From assembly GCA_023819525.1 (NCBI GenBank), contig JAMWCT010000045.1:1-11626 (forward strand): a stretch of 11,626 bases of DNA, written 5' to 3'. The notes below the pieces were generated by a model that was not told where the DNA came from, did not search any database, and worked only from the letters and a program-made list of their open reading frames with translations. The DNA comes from Candidatus Omnitrophota bacterium. GTDB lineage: Bacteria; Omnitrophota; Gorgyraeia; Duberdicusellales; 4484-171. Each line of letters opens with the position of its first letter. Within the stretch, counting starts at the first letter, position 1. A program made the translations under genes and the position numbers. Below, piece by piece: positions 1 to 11,626 of this stretch.

Positions 1-288
1 TAGGTTATCATAAATAAATTCAGCTGTATAAGTTAAGTTTGCTAAAATTCCACCTACCTTTGCTGCTGCTAAAAATACATATTGTGGTCTTTCTTTTTTA
101 AAAAACTCTTCTGTATCTTTTTGACTTCTTAAATCTAATTTATAAAACTTTACTCCTAAAGAGGTTGGATTTTTACTAAAATAATTTGAAACGATATTTT
201 TATATTCTTTCTTTCTTAATACCCTTATTAAGGCAGAACCAACTAATCCTGTTCCACCGGCAACAAATATTTTAGAACTTTTTTTCAT
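1..288 (-). CDS. fcl: GDP-L-fucose synthase (GDP-4-keto-6-deoxymannose 3,5-epimerase/4-reductase), N-terminal ~96 codons; gene continues past the left window edge
   Basis: The ORF table omits this because it has no stop inside the window. My own translation of the reverse complement from the ATG at 288..286 gives [96 protein letters not shown]. The Rossmann GxxGxxG N-terminus and the [17 protein letters not shown] motif are typical of Fcl/WcaG. The ATG overlaps the gmd stop codon as ATGA (286..290). Confidence 0.75.
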
Positions 289-1430
289 CAATATTCTTTT
301 GGGAAAAAAGAATATATGTGGTTAGTATAACAGAAGCCTTTTTCTTGACAGATCTTTATCCCTTCGCCTTTTGGCTTAATACCAACTAATTTTAAATCAT
401 AATCAACCATAATTTTTATTAACTCATCAAAAGTAATCTTTGGGCTCCATCCTAATTTTTCCTTTGCTTTTGTTATATCTGCTCTTAAATTATCAGCTTC
501 AGTTGGGCGAAAATATCTTGGGTCAATTTCTACTAAAACAGCCCCTTTCTTTAAATACTTATTTTTTAACTTTAAATCCTTAACTATGCCTTTTTGATTA
601 ACTCCTTTACCTTCCCAACCTATTTTTATACCCACATAATAAAAAGCTTTTTCTAAAAATTCTCTTACAGAATGGCTTTTGCCTGTTCCAATTACAAAAT
701 CTTCCGCCTCTTCTTGTTGTAAAATTCTCCACATCGCCTCCACATATTCAGGTGCAAAACCCCAGTCTCTTTTTGCATCTAAATTTCCTAAATAAATTTT
801 TTTTTGTTTCCCTATTAATATTGAAGCAATGGCCCTTGTTATTTTTCTAGTAACAAAAGTTTCTCCTCTTCTGGGGCTCTCATGGTTAAAAAGTATTCCG
901 TTAGAGGCAAATAAATTATAAGCTTCTCTATAATTTACAGTGCTCCAATAAGAATAAACTTTTGAAGCTGCATAAGGACTTCTTGGATAAAATGGGGTTT
1001 TTTCATTTTGTGGCGCAGGAGCATTCCCAAACATTTCTGAAGATGCTGCATTATAAAATTTAATATTTTTGCCTAACTTCCTTATCGCTTCTAAAATTCT
1101 AATTGTACCAAGGCCGGTGATATCCCCTGTATATTCAGGGATATCAAAACTTACTCTTACATGAGACTGTGCCCCTAAATGATAAATTTCATCAGGCTTT
1201 ATACTATAAATTATATTAGTCAATTGTCCTGAATCAGCTAGGTCTCCATAATAAAGAAATAATTTTGCTCCCTTACTATGTGGGTCTATATAAATATGCT
1301 CAATCCTTTGAGTGTTAAAAGTGCTAGCGCGTCTTATCAAACCAAAAACTTTATAACCTTTTGAAAGCAAAAACTCAGCTAAATATGAACCGTCTTGACC
1401 AGTTATACCTGTAATTAGTGCTTTCTTCAT
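288..1430 (-). CDS. gmd: GDP-mannose 4,6-dehydratase
   Basis: 380 aa. It begins [37 protein letters not shown] and carries the short-chain dehydrogenase (SDR)-family extended catalytic residues (S..YAASK). It is collinear with Gmd over its full length, and the stop TGA overlaps the fcl start. Confidence 0.95.
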
Positions 1431-1457
1431 TTTTTAAAAAACAAAGCTTCGCCCTCT

Positions 1458-1478
1458 CAGTCACATTGACTGGTTTTT
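1458..1478 (-). promoter_or_regulatory. Perfect 6-bp stem / 3-nt loop hairpin (cagtca-cat-tgactg) followed on the plus strand by gttttt; it lies in the 107-nt leader between the NusG-paralog gene and gmd
   Basis: Read directly from the sequence. The arms are exact reverse complements, and this is the only GC-enriched structured element in this leader. Its function is unknown. On the mRNA (minus) strand the hairpin is preceded by an A-run, not followed by a U-run, so it is not a canonical terminator in the sense direction. Confidence 0.3.
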
Positions 1479-1537
1479 GAAAATAAACAATTTGTTTTAA
1501 TATGTTGCACTAACTAAAAAACTGTAAATATACTAAT

Positions 1538-2044
1538 TTAAGCTATCTCCACGCAATCAACATCTACAACGCACTGCACCGATGAACCAATAGCATCAAT
1601 TGATACAACAAGTCTTGTATTTTTATTTCTTTTTTCTACAATAAAACCTTCAACTCCTTTTAATGGCCCTCTTTTAATTATAACCCTCTCACCTATTTTT
1701 AGGTATGGGTAAGGTTCTAATCTAATTTGATTTTCTACTAAAATTTTTAAAGAATTTATCACACTATCTTGCACAGGAATATATTGGTCAAAAAAATGAA
1801 CTACCTCTACAACCCCTTTTTGTTTTAAAATTTGTATTTTATTCTTTAACGCAAATTTTGCAAAACAGTAACCTTTAAAAAGAGGCTCCTCGACAATTTT
1901 TATTCTATCTGACCAGCGTCTTTTAAATGTTAATTTTGGTGTGAATGCTTCTATTCCTTTTCTTAAAAACTCTTTCTCCACAAATTTTTCATGTCTTGGT
2001 TTAGTATACAAGGCATACCAATTTAAAACATCTAATTGGTTCAT
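1538..2044 (-). CDS. Specialised NusG-paralog transcription antiterminator (UpxY/LoaP/RfaH-like: NGN domain plus KOW domain)
   Basis: 168 aa. The N-terminal WYALYTKPRHEKFVEKEFLRKGIEAF.P matches the NusG N-terminal (NGN) domain. The C-terminal IGERVIIKRGPLKGVEGFIVE....RLVVSID matches a KOW motif. Its size and its position at the head of a nucleotide-sugar operon are typical of polysaccharide-locus NusG paralogs. Confidence 0.8.
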   Translation of the reverse strand: MNQLDVLNWYALYTKPRHEKFVEKEFLRKGIEAFTPKLTFKRRWSDRIKIVEEPLFKGYCFAKFALKNKIQILKQKGVVEVVHFFDQYIPVQDSVINSLKILVENQIRLEPYPYLKIGERVIIKRGPLKGVEGFIVEKRNKNTRLVVSIDAIGSSVQCVVDVDCVEIA

Positions 2045-3781: not shown

Positions 3782-4330
3782 TTAAAAACCTAAAATTTTA
3801 ATACAATTGTTACAAAAATGATAATCTTTTCTATCTGTATCCAAAAGAGAATTAGAAAAATGCATTACGCATTTAGGGTTAGAACAATGATTTAAACCAA
3901 AAAGATGACCTATTTCATGGACCGCCTCTTTAAGTGCACGTTTTAAAAAAAGTTCTCTGTCTTCTTCTAAACCATAATACGATTGGCGCAATCTAGTAAT
4001 AGAAATAATACAAACACCTTTTTTTGGTTCTGCTTCGCCAAAGACAAAATTTAATCCTTCTGCATACAGGTCTTTATCGATGATTGCTAAAATTTTTTGA
4101 TTTTCTTTAGGGGTTTGGAGGGCATTTAAGATAAGCAAAGCAAGATATTGATCTCTCATTTGAGCATACGCATATCGAGGTATATCATATGAACCACCAA
4201 TATTAACTTTTGTAGAAAAAATCTCTTCTAAATTTTTGCTTAAGTAATTTAAAACTGCTTCTTCTATATTGCCAAAAGTAATAATTTCTAAAGACATTTT
4301 CTCTAATGCATAAACTTGATAGATATTCAA
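3782..4330 (-). CDS. amzA: Archaemetzincin-like zinc metallopeptidase (peptidase M54 family)
   Basis: HEIGHLFGLNHC-SNPKC-VM-(17 aa)-CNNC matches the archaemetzincin consensus HExxHxxGxxHCx4CxMx17CxxC. The start is uncertain: alternative ATGs at 4330 and 4297 both lack a strong SD. Confidence 0.8.
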   Translation of the reverse strand: MNIYQVYALEKMSLEIITFGNIEEAVLNYLSKNLEEIFSTKVNIGGSYDIPRYAYAQMRDQYLALLILNALQTPKENQKILAIIDKDLYAEGLNFVFGEAEPKKGVCIISITRLRQSYYGLEEDRELFLKRALKEAVHEIGHLFGLNHCSNPKCVMHFSNSLLDTDRKDYHFCNNCIKILGF

Positions 4331-5203: not shown

Positions 5204-5914
5204 TTACAGGGTTTTAGCCAAAAGGCTAAGTCTTTGAAGAACCCCTATTAAGTTCTCTTGCTGTAGATCTCTTCTTAAAACACAATTTTCTTTTTTGATT
5301 ATAATCTTCTTACCATCTATAATAATAGCATTAAATCCATTATTAAACAACTCTCTTATTGTATTTTTTATACTCATATTGTTAAGATAAAACATTACTT
5401 CTGTTGGCTTATTTGAAAATATTAAAAATTCTCTATCAAACATTTCATCAGTGGTCTTTACTCTATTGAGAATGCCAAATTTTTTACCAAGATCAAGTAA
5501 AAAATAAATAGACTCTTTATAAATACTCAATCTAAAAAAAGAATTTTTAAATAAAGAAATTATTAAATAAAGTGGAGTAGTGTTGCTACCGGCTACAAGC
5601 GAAATAGAAAATTTAAGTCCTTGATATTCTCCAATAAAGGTTGGAGTAAAGTAATATTTAGAAACAGTGCCATTTAGGAAAGTTGATAATTCTTTTAGCG
5701 CATCTATTTTCTTTTTACTAGAATAAAAAATAAGTACAAGTATAAGTATTATAATTATAGGCGAAATTATTATATATATGATATTTTCACTCATAAAATC
5801 TGTTTTTGATTTTTTAAAATACTTACCTGTGTTTTCTTTAAACAAATATATTATACTACAAAACCTAAAAAAAATCAGTTTTTTAAAAATTTTGTATAAG
5901 AGCACTAAAGTCAA
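5204..5914 (-). CDS. Hypothetical single-pass membrane protein immediately upstream of, and probably co-transcribed with, the stomatin gene
   Basis: The ORF is open over 236 codons in AT-rich DNA. A strongly hydrophobic segment, IIYIIISPIIIILILVLIFY, is followed by a ~170 aa soluble domain. I recognise no family. The true start may be the internal Met at 5794 (MSENIIY..). The gap to the stomatin gene is 38 nt. Confidence 0.5.
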   Translation of the reverse strand: MTLVLLYKIFKKLIFFRFCSIIYLFKENTGKYFKKSKTDFMSENIIYIIISPIIIILILVLIFYSSKKKIDALKELSTFLNGTVSKYYFTPTFIGEYQGLKFSISLVAGSNTTPLYLIISLFKNSFFRLSIYKESIYFLLDLGKKFGILNRVKTTDEMFDREFLIFSNKPTEVMFYLNNMSIKNTIRELFNNGFNAIIIDGKKIIIKKENCVLRRDLQQENLIGVLQRLSLLAKTL

Positions 5915-6838: not shown

Positions 6839-7162
6839 TTATTTATAGTTTCTAAGTTCCAAATTTTCTTTTTTTACTTTTTCTAATGCTTCTTGATTTT
6901 TTGCATACCATTCTTTTGTCCGCGCAAGTTGATCGTAAAGATCAGATTCCTCTTTCTTTTTTTCATTTAGTTGGTTTGCTAAAGATTCACATTCTTCTTT
7001 TAGTTTATCCCTTTCTTCTTTTATTTTTTCTATTTCATGTTCTAACTCGGAAATCTTAGCCTCAACGCCTTTGTCTTCTGCTTTAACAGAACTTGATTGT
7101 TTGAAAAAATAAACAGTAAGCCCAATTGCTACCACAATTAATAAGGATAAAAATAACGTCAT
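6839..7162 (-). CDS. Small membrane-anchored coiled-coil protein (FtsB/DivIC-like or YhcB-like architecture)
   Basis: The start is taken at the internal Met MTLFLSLLIVVAIGLTVYFF, a TM helix. It is followed by ~85 aa of heptad-like charged sequence (ELEHEIEKIKEERDKLKEECESLANQLNEKKKEE...). The ORF is open back to 7225, which would add a Cys/Asn-rich 21-aa extension that looks non-coding. No SD is present at either start. Confidence 0.5.
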   Translation of the reverse strand: MTLFLSLLIVVAIGLTVYFFKQSSSVKAEDKGVEAKISELEHEIEKIKEERDKLKEECESLANQLNEKKKEESDLYDQLARTKEWYAKNQEALEKVKKENLELRNYK

Positions 7163-7173
7163 ATTTTTATTAT

Positions 7174-7223
7174 AGCAACAATTTTTATTTATGCAACTAA
7201 CTTCTTTACTTGATTGTTGCAAC
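7174..7223. promoter_or_regulatory. Cluster of GCAAC-containing symmetric elements upstream of the coiled-coil protein gene
   Basis: gcaacaat (7175..7182) and attgttgc (7213..7220) are exact reverse complements 30 nt apart. A third tgcaac copy lies between them (7192..7197). The right arm extends into the 8-bp perfect palindrome gttgcaac (7216..7223). Confidence 0.3.
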
Positions 7224-7395
7224 ATAAAAAGTCAAGATTTTTGCAAAATAGAAATGCCACCTTCTAAAAGAAAATCTTCTAAAGAGTTTTCCCACTTCGT
7301 AAGTATAATGTGGTTTATAAAAACTCTTATATTTATTATCCAAATTTATCCTCGCTTGCTTGGGCAGGAATTGGTTAAAGGTTTTAATTATCTGA

Positions 7396-8607
7396 CTATA
7401 AATAGATTATATCGTCTTTATAAAACAAAGAAAGAAATAGTAACATATAATCTCTTAAGTGCCGCGTAATGAGAAAGTTATTTCGGATATGTTCCCTGCC
7501 ATTTTGGCCTAATTTTTTAGCATATTCTGGGCTATTTAAAAATTGTTTTAATGCAAATGCTGCGCCTTCAATAGACCGGCATAATAGCCCCGAATATTTA
7601 TGCTTTATCTGCAAAGGTATGCCACCTACATTAGAGGCAACTACTGGTTTTGCCTTCCAGAGGGATTCTGTAACAGTTAAACCAAAACCTTCCTTTAGAG
7701 ATTTTTGAATAATTATTGTTGAGGCGCGCTGTAATGCATTCACTTCTATATCATTATGTGGTAGAAGAATAACGTGAATGTCTTTATCTTGTTTTGCTTT
7801 TTCTTTTACTTCTTCAAAAACTTTTAAGCCTTCTGGATCATCAGCGGCTGTTCCCCCGGCTAAAATGAGTTGACAATCAATATATTTTTTTACAAGTAAA
7901 TAAGCATCAATCACGCCTATCGGATCTTTTAAGCGATCAAAACGAGAAATTTGGGTAATAATAGGTTTATCTTTTGAAATATTATATTTTTTTAGGACAC
8001 TATCTATAATATTCTGGGGCAATTCTTTATTTTTGTCACTTAAAGGATCAATGGAAGGTGAGATTAGAAATTGCCTAATCGGAAATCTGTGTGAGAAAGC
8101 CGGTGCAGAAAACACTGCTGCATCGTATTTGGTTATAAAATCCATAAGAAATCCAAAAATTCTTTCATTAGGAGTAGAGAGATCAATGTGACAACGCCAA
8201 ATCCATAGATTATTAGATTTTTTCTTTACAAGAACAATTGGTTGGGGATCATGAATAAAAACGATATCTCCATAGATATTTATCTCTTCGAGATTACGAA
8301 GGCTATTCTCCATAAATATATCAAAATCTCGCTGAGTAATTTCTTGTGGTTTCCCATGCAATGCATTATGAAACTTTTTAGTCACCTCAAAAAAATCTTC
8401 TCCACCTTTTATGATATCCCATCTTGCATCCACCCCAACTTCTTTTAATAGAGGAACCATGCGATTTAATATCTCGGCAACCCCACCCCCAACTGAAGTA
8501 GAATTAATATTTTGAATTATCTTACCTTTTAGTTTTTTTGCAATTAATCTCAGGTCATCAATTATAGATTGCCCAACAATAGGAATATAGTCTTCTATTT
8601 TTATCAT
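7396..8607 (-). CDS. treT: TreT-type trehalose glycosyltransferring synthase (GT4; NDP-glucose + glucose <-> trehalose)
   Basis: 403 aa. Against the Pyrococcus/Thermococcus TreT sequences I recall, it shares motifs along its whole length: NSTSVGGGVAEIL, VFIHDPQP, LWIWRCHIDLS.PN, SPSIDPLSDKN.EL, KPIITQISRFD, AGG.A.DDPEG, and EGFGLTVTESLWK.KPVVASNVGGIPLQI. The ATG overlaps the stop of the upstream gene as ATGA (8604..8607). Confidence 0.85.
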   Translation of the reverse strand: MIKIEDYIPIVGQSIIDDLRLIAKKLKGKIIQNINSTSVGGGVAEILNRMVPLLKEVGVDARWDIIKGGEDFFEVTKKFHNALHGKPQEITQRDFDIFMENSLRNLEEINIYGDIVFIHDPQPIVLVKKKSNNLWIWRCHIDLSTPNERIFGFLMDFITKYDAAVFSAPAFSHRFPIRQFLISPSIDPLSDKNKELPQNIIDSVLKKYNISKDKPIITQISRFDRLKDPIGVIDAYLLVKKYIDCQLILAGGTAADDPEGLKVFEEVKEKAKQDKDIHVILLPHNDIEVNALQRASTIIIQKSLKEGFGLTVTESLWKAKPVVASNVGGIPLQIKHKYSGLLCRSIEGAAFALKQFLNSPEYAKKLGQNGREHIRNNFLITRHLRDYMLLFLSLFYKDDIIYL

Positions 8608-9278
8608 ATGCTACTAATTCTATTTTCAATTATTTTTACTAAGGTTTTACGTAGATCTTCTAAGGTATAGGTGTAAGGGTCAAACCTTGAGATTTCTCTA
8701 GCTAATTCTTCATCAGAAAGAGAACTTTCTATCCAGTTAGAAAAATCATTGGTATTTTTTTCTAGTCTTAAGCGCGCTTCAAAAACATGAAAATATATAG
8801 AATCTATAGTTATCTTTTTTAAGATTTCCACGAATTCTTTTAAGTCATATGCAATAAAATTTGTGGGTAAAATAAAACTTATCGATTTCATAAAATGGAA
8901 TTCTTCGCCTTCTCTTGCAAAACTTAATTTAGCTAATGGATTTTCTTTTAAATAATTTTCTATTGTTTGGATTATTTTTTCTCTAAGGCTATGTATATTA
9001 GAAAATTGAATTGTATCAATACTGGCCAATTTTTCTGCCAATTCATCTTCTCCTAATACTTCTCTTACCCAATAGGCAAAATCATTGGGTGGTTCAGGAG
9101 AAAGATATTGGTGTTGTTGCAAGAATCTATGTGTGTGATGATAGATACAAGAACCAGACACTTTTTTTAGAAGTTCTAAAAGCTGCAATAAATTAGAAGC
9201 CTTAAAACCGGTCAACTCGGTTAAATGTATTCGCGTATAAAACCTAAATGGTGTTTTTGCTTTTTTTAATTCTGCCAT
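8604..9278 (-). CDS. Uncharacterised ~224-aa protein built from an internal tandem duplication, embedded in the trehalose operon
   Basis: The ORF-table start at 9296 is a TTG. The first ATG (9278..9276, MAELKKAKTPF..) lies 4 nt after the OtsB stop. The two halves align clearly: LLELLKKVSGSCIYHHTHRF with FVEILKKITIDSIYFHVFEAR; NDFAYWVREVLGEDELAEKLASID with NDFSNWIESSLSDEELAREISRFD; LREKIIQTIENYL with LRKTLVKIIENRI. I recognise no family. Confidence 0.7.
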   Translation of the reverse strand: MAELKKAKTPFRFYTRIHLTELTGFKASNLLQLLELLKKVSGSCIYHHTHRFLQQHQYLSPEPPNDFAYWVREVLGEDELAEKLASIDTIQFSNIHSLREKIIQTIENYLKENPLAKLSFAREGEEFHFMKSISFILPTNFIAYDLKEFVEILKKITIDSIYFHVFEARLRLEKNTNDFSNWIESSLSDEELAREISRFDPYTYTLEDLRKTLVKIIENRISSI

Positions 9279-9282
9279 TTTA

Positions 9283-10071
9283 TTATAGTTCTGCAATAAG
9301 CCTTAAAAAATTTCTTACCTCTTGTGTATTTTTTAGATAATACTGCGCTTCTGTTTTTTTAGGTCTTCCAACAAAAATAGTAATTCCTTTATTGTGCAAC
9401 ACCTCAAAAGCATCTTCATCAGTTAAGTCATCGCCAAGATAAATAGGCATAGTTTCTTTTTTTGTAAAACCAGCATTTAATTTCTCAAGTAGCCACAACA
9501 TTGCTCTACCTTTATTCCAGACCACTGGTGGTGTTATTTCAAAGGCTTTTTTTGCTTTTTTAATCTTTATTTTATTTACTTTTTTATAGGCAGCGGTTGC
9601 TTGATGTAGAATTTTTTTCACTTTTGGTATATTGTTTTTTTTAACTAAACGATAATGTAGGCTTAATGATAACCCTTTATCTTCTATAAACGTTCCTTTT
9701 ATTGTAGATAAATTTATTTTTAACTTATTCCTTATATTTTTAAGTATGTGTTTATATTTAGAGGAAGTTGGATACTTAAACTTTATTTTTGGGCCTTCTA
9801 TTTCTAAACCATGATTGGCGGCATAAATAACTCTATTAATACCTATCTTTTTTTTAATATCTTTTAATGCTCTACCACTAATAATGGCTAATTGACAATA
9901 CCTATTCTTTATCAATCTGCGCAATAGTTTTTTAGTTTCTGGCAATAATGTTGCTTCTTGAGGTGTTTTTGCAATAGGTGTTAGTGTGCCATCGTAATCC
10001 AAAAATAAAATTATATTTTTGTTATTAAATTTTTTCTTTAATTTATCCCACTCATCAAAAAAATATTGCAT
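9283..10071 (-). CDS. otsB: Trehalose-6-phosphate phosphatase (HAD superfamily, OtsB type)
   Basis: 262 aa. HAD motif I is LFLDYDGTLTPI, motif II is AIISGR, and the ANHG.E. and KG.A......GDDLTDEDAF motifs are typical of trehalose-phosphate phosphatase (TPP). The start lies 12 nt after the GT20 gene stop. Confidence 0.9.
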   Translation of the reverse strand: MQYFFDEWDKLKKKFNNKNIILFLDYDGTLTPIAKTPQEATLLPETKKLLRRLIKNRYCQLAIISGRALKDIKKKIGINRVIYAANHGLEIEGPKIKFKYPTSSKYKHILKNIRNKLKINLSTIKGTFIEDKGLSLSLHYRLVKKNNIPKVKKILHQATAAYKKVNKIKIKKAKKAFEITPPVVWNKGRAMLWLLEKLNAGFTKKETMPIYLGDDLTDEDAFEVLHNKGITIFVGRPKKTEAQYYLKNTQEVRNFLRLIAEL

Positions 10072-10083
10072 AAAACTTTTATG

Positions 10084-11626
10084 CTACATTTTCTTTAAGG
10101 CCGCCAATTCCTCAATAATATTTGCTGCCCAGCGGTAAACATTGTTTTCTATTATAGATTTTCGCATATTCTCCATACGTTTCCTTTTTTCTTCTATAGG
10201 CATTTCAATTGCTAACTTTATGGCATCTGCAAATTCTTCAATGTGATAAGGATTGATCTGTATAGCATCGGTTAACTCCTTCGAGGCCCCTGTAAATTGA
10301 CTTAAAATTAAACTTCCTGATAAATCCTTCTTTGCCGCAACATATTCTTTAGCGACTAAGTTCATCCCGTCATGCAAAGAACTGACGATACAAAAGTGTG
10401 CTAACATATAGTAAGGTTCTATTTTTTCTTGTGAGAAATGCCCTTTAAGATATATTATCGGCTTCCAGTTTTCATCAAGATACTTCCAGTTTTTCTTCTC
10501 GATTAGTTCATCTATTTCTCCTATAAGTTGATGATAGCGCTGGATATGCGTTCGGCTTGGAGCAGCCAATTGGATAAAAACAATTTTTTTCTTATATTTA
10601 GGATATTTTTCTAAAAATCTATCTATAGCCAATATCCTTTCTATTATACCCTTGGTATAATCAATTCTATCTACACCAACACCAACTATTTTATCTTTTA
10701 GGTTAAATTCTTCTTTCAATTTTTCAACCTCTCTTATTGCCTCACTATTAGATTTTATATTATTAATATAGCCATCTATACTTATAGGATAGGCCCGCAC
10801 ATATGTTTCCTTTCCGTGTCTTACTACACTAAATTTTTCTGTATCCACTCTAGATTCAAGAAGTCTATTTGCGGTGTCAAGGAAATTGTTGCAGTGATTT
10901 TGCACATGAAATCCAACAAGATCACTTCCTAACAAACCATTTAATATTTCTTCTTGATAAGGACAAATCAAAAAGTTTTCCGGATTTGGCCAAGGAATAT
11001 GCCAAAATAAAGCAATCGTTGCGTCCGGACGTTTTTCTTTAAGCATTTTTGGAAGCAAAGTAAAGTGATAATCTTGGATAAAAATAAAAGGGCTCTTTAC
11101 TGGTAGTTCTTCCAAAATACTTTCACAAAACTTTTGATTTACCTTTTTATACATCTGCCAATCCTTTTCTCTAAAAATAGGCCTTGTGTGGGCGTTGTGA
11201 CAAAGTGGCCACAAGCCTTCATTTGCAAATCCATAATAGTAACCTTCTTCTTCTTCTTTTGAAAGCCATACTCTTTTTAAGATATATCGGTTGTCTTCTG
11301 GTGGAACACCAAGTTTATTTTTAGAATTGACAAATTTTTTATCAGCATTTCCACTACCATGAGCAATCCAGGTGCCACCACAAGCGCATAAAATAGGGTG
11401 TATAGCAGTAACCACCCCACTTGCAGGTCTAATGCATTTTGGCAAGCCAGTAGTTTCATCTAAAACGTGCATATAAGGTTCTCTGTTTGACACCACAAAG
11501 AAAGCATTGTCTCCTATTTTTGCATGGATAAGGTCTTTTAATTTTTTCTCTGTCCAGATTTCTTCTTCGTGTAAACGCGCCTGGGCTTCATCAGAAATTG
11601 TTCTTCTAGCAACCCTTAAAGACAAT
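10084..11626 (-). CDS. otsA: GT20 alpha,alpha-trehalose-phosphate synthase family enzyme (OtsA-like); the 5' end may continue beyond the window edge
   Basis: At least 513 aa. GT20 core motifs are present: VVSNREPY, GG..IAHGSG, YYYGFANEGLWPLCH, FIQDYHF.LLP, LFWHIPWP, LLG.DLVGFH, GVDRIDYTKGI, and LHDGMNLVAKEYVAA. The first codon at the window edge is TTG (11625..11623), so the true N-terminus is probably outside the window. Confidence 0.88.
   Translation of the reverse strand, partial: LSLRVARRTISDEAQARLHEEEIWTEKKLKDLIHAKIGDNAFFVVSNREPYMHVLDETTGLPKCIRPASGVVTAIHPILCACGGTWIAHGSGNADKKFVNSKNKLGVPPEDNRYILKRVWLSKEEEEGYYYGFANEGLWPLCHNAHTRPIFREKDWQMYKKVNQKFCESILEELPVKSPFIFIQDYHFTLLPKMLKEKRPDATIALFWHIPWPNPENFLICPYQEEILNGLLGSDLVGFHVQNHCNNFLDTANRLLESRVDTEKFSVVRHGKETYVRAYPISIDGYINNIKSNSEAIREVEKLKEEFNLKDKIVGVGVDRIDYTKGIIERILAIDRFLEKYPKYKKKIVFIQLAAPSRTHIQRYHQLIGEIDELIEKKNWKYLDENWKPIIYLKGHFSQEKIEPYYMLAHFCIVSSLHDGMNLVAKEYVAAKKDLSGSLILSQFTGASKELTDAIQINPYHIEEFADAIKLAIEMPIEEKRKRMENMRKSIIENNVYRWAANIIEELAALKKM

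Follow-up and report, generated by a model that had tools for sequence, protein, structure and literature searches.

Gene organization of the cluster

We analysed a stretch of DNA of 11,626 bp that comprises the entire contig JAMWCT010000045.1 of a Candidatus Omnitrophota bacterium (GCA_023819525.1), hereafter the window, whose G+C content is low throughout (~0.21-0.37). Its minus strand carries four co-directional genes: otsA, for a trehalose-6-phosphate synthase of glycosyltransferase family 20 (GT20); otsB, for a trehalose-6-phosphate phosphatase (TPP); a gene of the DUF5752 / OrfY family; and treT, for a trehalose glycosyltransferring synthase of family GT4. The OtsA/OtsB and TreT routes to trehalose are thus encoded in one tight cluster, as the initial annotation had proposed, and domain, hidden Markov model (HMM) and motif evidence agrees with that assignment.

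Sequence reading places otsA, which is truncated at its 5' end, at 11626..10084 (stop TAG 10086-10084) and separates it by a 12-nt spacer (10083-10072) from otsB, a gene of the HAD-IIB type at 10071..9283 (stop TAA 9285-9283). Four further nucleotides, TAAA (9282-9279), lead to the DUF5752 gene at 9278..8604, which encodes 224 aa. The start of treT (8607..7396) overlaps the stop of this gene, the ATG of the former and the TGA of the latter forming an ATGA with 4 nt shared. For the DUF5752 gene we assign the start to the ATG at 9278, which fits the homologues and the 224-aa database entry P0001, 100% identical to the product, rather than to the TTG at 9296 given in the list of open reading frames (ORFs). 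The packing of the genes, with 12-nt, 4-nt and ATGA-overlap junctions, had been described exactly; we add the correction that they lie on the minus strand. The accompanying statement that the genes are almost certainly co-translated went too far in its certainty: the tight spacing is observed, and co-translation is deduced from it. On this basis the four genes are probably co-transcribed and translationally coupled.

In a consensus scan, whose consensus may not apply to Omnitrophota, the coding strand showed four weak promoter-like matches (9/12) and nothing that resembled a terminator. Over both strands of the region, promoter-like matches were fewer than in shuffled sequence (12 vs 21.3 ± 4.7); the scan thus gave no sign of internal signals that would split treT from otsAB. 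Rfam and tRNA scans of the window gave no matches. The 170 nt that lie 3' of treT (7395..7226, minus strand) are the probable end of the cluster, the next gene being absent from related loci; a consensus terminator was not detected in these 170 nt.

OtsA, OtsB and TreT resemble ordinary members of their families

The GT20 product aligns with PF00982 over profile positions 3-472 of 473 (E 5.6e-122, 408 bits), and its best matches in the PDB are all OtsA or Tps1 proteins, with mycobacterial OtsA at the top (5jij, E 4.5e-87). Among NCBIfam models it scores 424.1 bits with TIGR02400 (OtsA; equivalog cut-off 564.85) and 291.4 bits with TIGR02398 (GgpS, glucosylglycerol-phosphate synthase; cut-off 569). 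The highest score, 482.6 bits, is reached with the trehalose-phosphate synthase (TPS) half of the bifunctional model PRK14501 and is likewise below the equivalog cut-off. A GgpS identity was rejected, since the HMM scores favour OtsA and the adjoining TPP is recognized at equivalog level. In an alignment with OtsA of Escherichia coli MG1655, residues R10, G23, Y77, W86, D131, H155, R263, K268, R301, D362 and E370 (E. coli numbering with Met1 counted) are all invariant. They correspond to Arg9, Gly22, Tyr76, Trp85, Asp130, His154, Arg262, Lys267, Arg300, Asp361 and Glu369 of the E. coli enzyme, which are reported to bind glucose-6-phosphate and UDP-glucose (Gibson et al. 2002).

OtsB matches PF02358 (E 1e-44) and passes the trehalose-6-phosphate phosphatase equivalog TIGR00685 by a wide interval (171.4 bits vs a cut-off of 68.05). 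Its HAD motifs I-IV (DxDGT, SGR, K and GDDxTDE) are invariant relative to E. coli OtsB, so that the classical TPP motifs noticed in this HAD partner are indeed intact.

TreT combines a C-terminal GT4 domain, PF00534 (E 3.7e-24), with an N-terminal domain specific to TreT, PF21269 (TreT_GT1, E 1.6e-52), and the motifs GGGVAE, SRFDRxKD and E-x7-E (EGFGLTVTE) are present in its sequence. Among solved structures it is nearest to Thermoproteus uzoniensis TreT (6zj4, 48% identity over 394 columns, E 2.3e-124), followed by Pyrococcus horikoshii TreT (2x6q, E 7.7e-101), whereas the next GT4 structures are far weaker, at about 1e-15. By search E-values (2e-124 and 8e-101 vs 4e-15), the GT4 protein accordingly falls inside the TreT group, as anticipated. 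The score with NF041139, the NCBIfam equivalog for TreT of Thermococcales, is 368.8 bits; this lineage-specific cut-off of 775 is not reached, and the protein is therefore not an orthologue of the Thermococcales type. In sum, OtsA, OtsB and TreT appear intact and typical of their families, with no hint in their sequences of a different product.

DUF5752 is a duplicated, acidic orphan fold

The third gene had been listed as an unknown protein inserted between two pathways. This description has to be revised: the product belongs to DUF5752 (PF19027, E 1.3e-70), it has a homologue of solved structure in the Thermoproteus tenax entry 4CSO (‘OrfY protein, transcription factor’, E 3e-23), and its gene is the constant upstream neighbour of treT rather than an odd insertion. 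A model computed with AlphaFold from 39 diverse homologues reached a pLDDT of 94.3. The fold is an orphan one and not a DNA-binding fold. The protein contains an internal tandem duplication, in which residues 11-108 align with 127-220 (29% identity, E 1e-13), and in each half an F-x-F motif on a β-hairpin is accompanied by a conserved His and an NDF-x-x-W motif. Across the 39 diverse members F11, F13, H48, W70, H164 and W182 are invariant. With a pI of 6.1, against a median of 6.2 for the family, the protein is acidic, and the family is large, with >5,000 clusters at 90% identity and 862 at 50% identity (E ≤ 1e-3).

Most likely, DUF5752 is a non-enzymatic, stoichiometric partner of TreT, acting as an adaptor or regulator and not as a DNA binder. 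We favour a partner of TreT over a DNA-binding regulator because of the apparent translational coupling, the acidity, the missing DNA-binding fold and the linker-free fusions to channels and enzymes described below. A physical interaction between DUF5752 and TreT would follow from such a role. We also note that the conservation of aromatic, His and Asp residues in the repeats is reminiscent of sugar-binding sites; that these duplicated motifs might bind sugar is speculation.

In the literature we searched, with most subscription papers lying outside the search, no paper mentions DUF5752, OrfY or 4CSO, nor is there a published OrfY function. DUF5752 and TreT match no defence system in PADLOC, and a candidate ‘GT4-conflict’ defence link was discarded, the weak Pfam matches behind it being generic GT4 similarity.

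The DUF5752-treT pair is the invariant core of a widespread cluster

We surveyed genomes with a six-sequence DUF5752 profile, taking one genome per species, and collected the best 80 of at least 575 stretches that encode a relative. These 80 all belong to Omnitrophota or mislabelled relatives, with 70-78% identity. Together with locus L001 they give 81 Omnitrophota loci, and the order [MscS]-OtsA-[MscS]-OtsB-DUF5752-TreT was found in 81/81, wherever the contig reaches. The flanking genes of the window essentially never adjoin the cluster in these loci; what is conserved is therefore the module itself and not general synteny.

Contig look-ups extended the survey to divergent lineages in which DUF5752 is only 31-60% identical, and the same core order recurs there. 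In L082, where DUF5752 is 33% identical to that of the window, the order is GT20 (761 aa)-TPP-transmembrane (TM)-only MscS-like-DUF5752-TreT, and L084 adds an MscS gene in front of the same series (MscS-GT20-TPP-TM-only MscS-like-DUF5752-TreT). L083 reads TM-only MscS-like-TPP-TM-only MscS-like-DUF5752-TreT-HAD. The Elusimicrobia loci L085 and L086 have GT20-CLC channel-TPP-DUF5752-TreT, and L094 and L095 have GT20-TPP-DUF5752-TreT with glycogen genes adjoining. In L096 and L097, OtsAB is absent and TM-only MscS-like-DUF5752-TreT stands by itself. The expectation that the four-gene order would be conserved in relatives is thus borne out both within Omnitrophota and beyond.

A separate scan of metagenomes, seeded with the divergent clade, contributed 80 further loci. 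Of those with downstream flank, 68/69 have treT directly after DUF5752, the exception being a split DUF5752 ORF that treT still follows. Where at least 4.5 kb of upstream flank was available (n=24), OtsA was encoded in 21/24, OtsB in 20/24, and an MscS-type gene, upstream or fused, in 13/24. Since DUF5752 is followed by treT in 95/95 cases among L001-L097 and the window, the two surveys combined place DUF5752 directly upstream of treT in 163/164 testable cases. The junction itself is short, with a median of ~1 nt over 95 loci and ≤ 6 nt in 86/95.

We therefore find that DUF5752-treT is the invariant core, which is often joined by OtsAB and by genes for channels (MscS, TM-only MscS-like, CLC). 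The cluster occurs widely in Omnitrophota, in Elusimicrobia and in further uncultivated lineages, and the earlier suggestion of a rare or undescribed arrangement was overstated.

DUF5752 is fused to, or encoded beside, mechanosensitive channel proteins

The connection between DUF5752 and channels is the more interesting lead of this locus, and the only fresh one. Among the top 150 DUF5752 representatives at 50% identity, 21 are at least 290 aa long, and 16 of these are fusions of MscS to DUF5752 (P0123, P0126, P0130, P0147 and P0169 among them), in which several TM helices and the MscS β-domain precede DUF5752. Homology of the fusions to canonical Omnitrophota MscS ends at residue ~228-239 of 343, where the C-terminal domain PF21082 begins, and DUF5752 starts within a few residues of the β-domain end, with no linker. 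As MscS homology stops where PF21082 would start, DUF5752 stands in for the cytoplasmic C-terminal domain of MscS. The invariant F, H and W residues of DUF5752 are kept in the fusions, and each of the fusion genes that we looked up (e.g., L087:2948-4330) lies directly upstream of treT.

A similar arrangement is found with separate genes. TM-only MscS-like proteins (PF05552, ~226-232 aa) abut or overlap the start of DUF5752 in L082 (7303-8001), L083 (7342-8025), L084 (7342-8022) and L096 (7321-8004), and each such pair resembles a split version of the MscS-DUF5752 fusion.

Other fusions occur as well. A 713-aa protein with DUF5752 at its end is encoded upstream of treT in a locus where an MscS gene is also close by, TPP is fused to DUF5752 in one case, and a fusion of a maltokinase-cap-like domain to DUF5752 adjoins TreS and treT. 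One apparent DUF5752-TreT protein was set aside, as it looks like a frameshift fragment. One metagenome contig (L090:248-9499) has two copies of DUF5752, one of them in the maltokinase-cap-like fusion (745 aa), together with TreS, treT, a TM-only MscS-like gene and two further genes, one GT4/GT5 glucan synthase-like and one GT2-like; this gene content ties DUF5752 also to the trehalose-maltose-glucan branch.

Chloride channels of the CLC type occur in the neighbourhood as well. In the Elusimicrobia loci the CLC gene lies between otsA and otsB (L085:5858-7243; L086:919-2304), and a small number of Omnitrophota loci have CLC homologues at the flanks of the cluster.

Full-length OtsA homologues carry a sensor-like N-terminal module

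The initial annotation needs a further correction in that the GT20 gene is incomplete. The 513-aa ORF that starts from TTG at 11625 is an artefact of the contig end, this TTG being an internal Leu codon, and OtsA of the window (…ALSLRVARRTISDEA…) aligns only from residue ~233 of its ~744-aa closest homologues. What remains in the window is the end of a linker and the catalytic domain, the cut 5' end of the gene lying at 11520-11626 (minus strand).

In the full-length homologues (e.g., L002:6950-9181), the N-terminal part comprises two TM helices, between which lies a periplasmic domain of ~140 aa, and then the linker. Single-Cache models matched this region in 12/14 members (best E 1e-5, all below gathering thresholds) and HAMP matched in 8/14 members, likewise sub-threshold, while a profile of the region matches AF1503 HAMP structures at positions 190-238 (E 0.005). 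The Cache and HAMP assignment is therefore weak but convergent. The long form of OtsA occurs in 50 of the collected loci, including L082 from a very distant DUF5752 lineage, and a short soluble form of ~490 aa occurs in about 14.

Since the full-length relatives fuse the enzyme to a two-TM module with Cache-like and HAMP-like parts, a signal from the envelope or of an osmotic kind may control OtsA directly and post-translationally in these organisms. We know of no description of a sensor-kinase-style Cache/HAMP input module fused to a trehalose-phosphate synthase.

Interpretation and alternative explanations

The cluster probably constitutes an osmostress trehalose-synthesis module with two routes to the same product, in which DUF5752 serves as an adaptor or regulator coupled to TreT. 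In the first route, OtsA would form trehalose-6-phosphate from a nucleoside diphosphate (NDP)-glucose and glucose-6-phosphate, and OtsB would convert it to trehalose; in the second, TreT would form trehalose directly from NDP-glucose and free glucose. Given that the acceptors differ (glucose-6-phosphate vs free glucose), the two routes could confer flexibility toward the carbon state of the cell. From metagenome-assembled genomes (MAGs) of Omnitrophota, others have concluded that imported sugars are probably converted to trehalose (PMC8542988). DUF5752 would be made together with TreT through the overlapping stop and start codons and may couple trehalose synthesis to a membrane-tension release valve, because elsewhere it replaces the cytoplasmic domain of MscS or follows a TM-only MscS-like gene. 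A link of DUF5752 to the gating of a channel would be part of such coupling.

A more far-reaching version of this explanation is that DUF5752 is an unrecognised regulatory domain that physically couples the formation of trehalose by TreT to MscS channels, with the pseudo-symmetric repeat and its conserved Phe, His, Asp and Trp residues perhaps binding a solute such as trehalose, and that, together with a Cache-HAMP OtsA, the cluster encodes a self-contained, transcription-independent osmosensing machine that makes and releases its solute. The three forms in which DUF5752 is encountered would then be the channel's own cytoplasmic domain (fusions), the partner of a TM-only MscS protein (split pairs) and a free subunit (the window). 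We regard this version as tentative and more probably wrong than right.

Among the alternatives, one assigns the two routes to opposite directions: OtsAB would make trehalose, and TreT running in reverse (trehalose + NDP to NDP-glucose + glucose) would regain carbon once the stress has passed, a role that has been proposed for Thermococcus litoralis. Reversibility of TreT is documented for T. litoralis (PMC6861944) and for P. horikoshii (PMC13597711), and some loci place glycogen or TreS/maltokinase genes beside DUF5752-treT, which links the pair to glucan metabolism. However, the window TreT matches the Thermoproteus type (2e-124) better than it does the Pyrococcus type (8e-101), and TreT of T. 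tenax is reported to be unidirectional and synthetic (PMC3634074; PMC6861944). The gene context is biosynthetic and includes channels, and DUF5752-treT exists without otsAB, i.e., independently of an OtsAB product. The trehalose/maltose ABC transporter that accompanies the catabolic treT of Thermococcales is absent from the window. Of the synthesis-plus-recycling idea put forward in the initial annotation, reversibility of the family in Thermococcales stands, while the biosynthetic and channel context and the closer Thermoproteus-type match disfavour the recycling itself; we consider it unlikely and suggest that the window TreT runs in the synthetic direction.

The same annotation had also raised a second glycosyl transfer, onto the OtsAB product, that would give a new compatible solute. 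In this reading, which we widened to other acceptors, the GT4 enzyme would not be a trehalose synthase. The missed Thermococcales equivalog cut-off (369 vs 775 bits) and the predicted nature of any GT4 specificity would leave room for such an activity. Yet the protein shares 48% identity along its whole length with the biochemically and structurally characterised T. uzoniensis TreT (TuTreT) and contains the TreT-specific PF21269, the next GT4 structures match only at ~1e-15, and the DUF5752-treT pair occurs in loci without otsAB. This proposal gained no support from our analysis, and we judge it very improbable.

If DUF5752/OrfY were a transcription factor, it could autoregulate the trehalose operon, and the depositors of 4CSO did name OrfY a ‘transcription factor’; this entry name is the sole basis of the label. 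The fold evidence conflicts with it, as do the acidity of the protein (pI 6.1; family median 6.2) and the repeated linker-free fusion of DUF5752 to the MscS β-domain, and also to kinase-like and phosphatase domains. The coupling of its stop to the treT start in ~90% of loci better suits a stoichiometric partner, and a role in transcription thus appears quite unlikely.

Several points weigh against the osmostress module with a TreT-coupled DUF5752, beyond the name chosen by the depositors. The window shows no MscS gene, because its contig ends inside otsA. The 81 Omnitrophota loci share one phylum and so are not independent samples. OtsA lies under the NCBIfam equivalog cut-off (424 vs 564.85), which makes its donor and acceptor specificity uncertain, and the Cache and HAMP matches are all sub-threshold and concern a portion of otsA outside the window. 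Given the reversibility of TreT in Thermococcus and Pyrococcus, the synthetic direction of the window enzyme is a prediction. For all members of the cluster, expression, interaction and solute roles are predicted from sequence.

Comparison with known trehalose systems

The otsBA genes of E. coli encode the same two enzyme families, are adjacent and co-directional, and share the catalytic and substrate residues that we checked. They differ from the window in their order, which is reversed (otsA then otsB here), and in identity, which is 34% for OtsA and 28% for OtsB. E. coli OtsA is without the N-terminal TM, Cache-like and HAMP-like module seen in the full-length homologues of the window OtsA, and the window cluster, unlike otsBA, runs on into DUF5752-treT.

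All component families of the cluster were already known, and the association of OrfY with TreT has reportedly been noted for T. tenax, where orfY adjoins treT (Kouril et al. 2008). The pair in the window is bacterial and appended to otsA-otsB, whereas the TPS/TPP route of T. tenax is encoded as a fused TPSP in a different operon.

The nearest precedent is this other operon, msc-gt-tpsp. In it, TPSP is activated by a non-catalytic partner with which it forms a complex, and the gene of a TM-only MscS-like protein is transcribed along with theirs (PMC3634074, Zaparty et al. 2013); the organization is stated to be unique to Thermoproteus and Pyrobaculum (PMC3634074). Both systems encode a trehalose enzyme with a mechanosensitive-channel (MSC)-like protein and a non-catalytic partner that forms, or in our case would form, a complex, and the T. 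tenax MSC is TM-only MscS-like, as are the PF05552 proteins upstream of DUF5752 in L082-L084 and L096. They differ in that the accessory protein of T. tenax is a GT4 (PimA-like) and not DUF5752, in that its enzyme is the fused TPSP and not TreT, and in that the window has no visible MscS gene. By analogy, the bacterial clusters would follow the same logic with different parts.

TreT of Thermococcales (T. litoralis, P. horikoshii) belongs to the same family as that of the window (2x6q, E 7.7e-101), whose protein stays under the Thermococcales equivalog cut-off. The Thermococcales gene context comprises a trehalose/maltose ABC transporter and TrmB and is not known to include OrfY. It is one of transport and catabolism, and that of the window is biosynthetic, with OtsAB and DUF5752.

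In the searchable literature, which included few subscription papers, we found no description of an otsA-otsB-DUF5752-treT cluster, of MscS-DUF5752 fusions, of the embedded channel genes or of a Cache/HAMP-fused OtsA. The papers found there on TreT with mechanosensitive channels, or on trehalose in Omnitrophota, do not describe the cluster.

Trehalose is a major stress protectant, and the post-translational control of its level in prokaryotes is poorly understood. To our knowledge, a “trehalose synthase complex” has been described in prokaryotes only once, for the TPSP-GT pair of T. tenax, which is encoded with an MSC gene. The clusters collected here suggest that a comparable logic, in which synthesis enzymes, an accessory protein and release channels are encoded together, is widespread in uncultivated bacteria, and they point to an OtsA architecture with a fused sensor. 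For OrfY/DUF5752, a family of solved structure that is still a functional orphan, they offer a concrete, testable role as a constant TreT partner that can replace the cytoplasmic domain of MscS. If only the plain reading of two redundant routes in one operon were true, what would remain is an annotation rule, namely that DUF5752 marks biosynthetic TreT loci, and there would be no surprise.

Other genes of the window

The remaining genes of the window encode a GDP-mannose dehydratase, a NusG paralogue, an SSF symporter, an M54 peptidase, an SPFH protein and an α/β-hydrolase. The gene next to the cluster (7225..6839, minus strand), 170 nt downstream of treT, encodes a 128-aa membrane-anchored coiled-coil protein with only low-complexity coiled-coil matches. 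It was considered as a fifth member of the cluster and rejected, as it lies beside the cluster in no related locus.

Between the SPFH/band-7 gene and the divergent α/β-hydrolase gene lies a 236-aa ORF (5204-5914, minus strand) with one predicted TM segment and no Pfam match. At 288-2044 (minus strand), the NusG-family paralogue (168 aa) is encoded directly upstream of a GDP-mannose 4,6-dehydratase, a pair that resembles the specialised NusG/UpxY-type antiterminators of polysaccharide loci. The peptidase (3782-4330, minus strand, ORF from TTG) is a homologue of the archaemetzincin-type M54 family in a bacterial MAG, with an HExxHxxGxxH-like motif and a match to PF07998 at E 2.5e-29.

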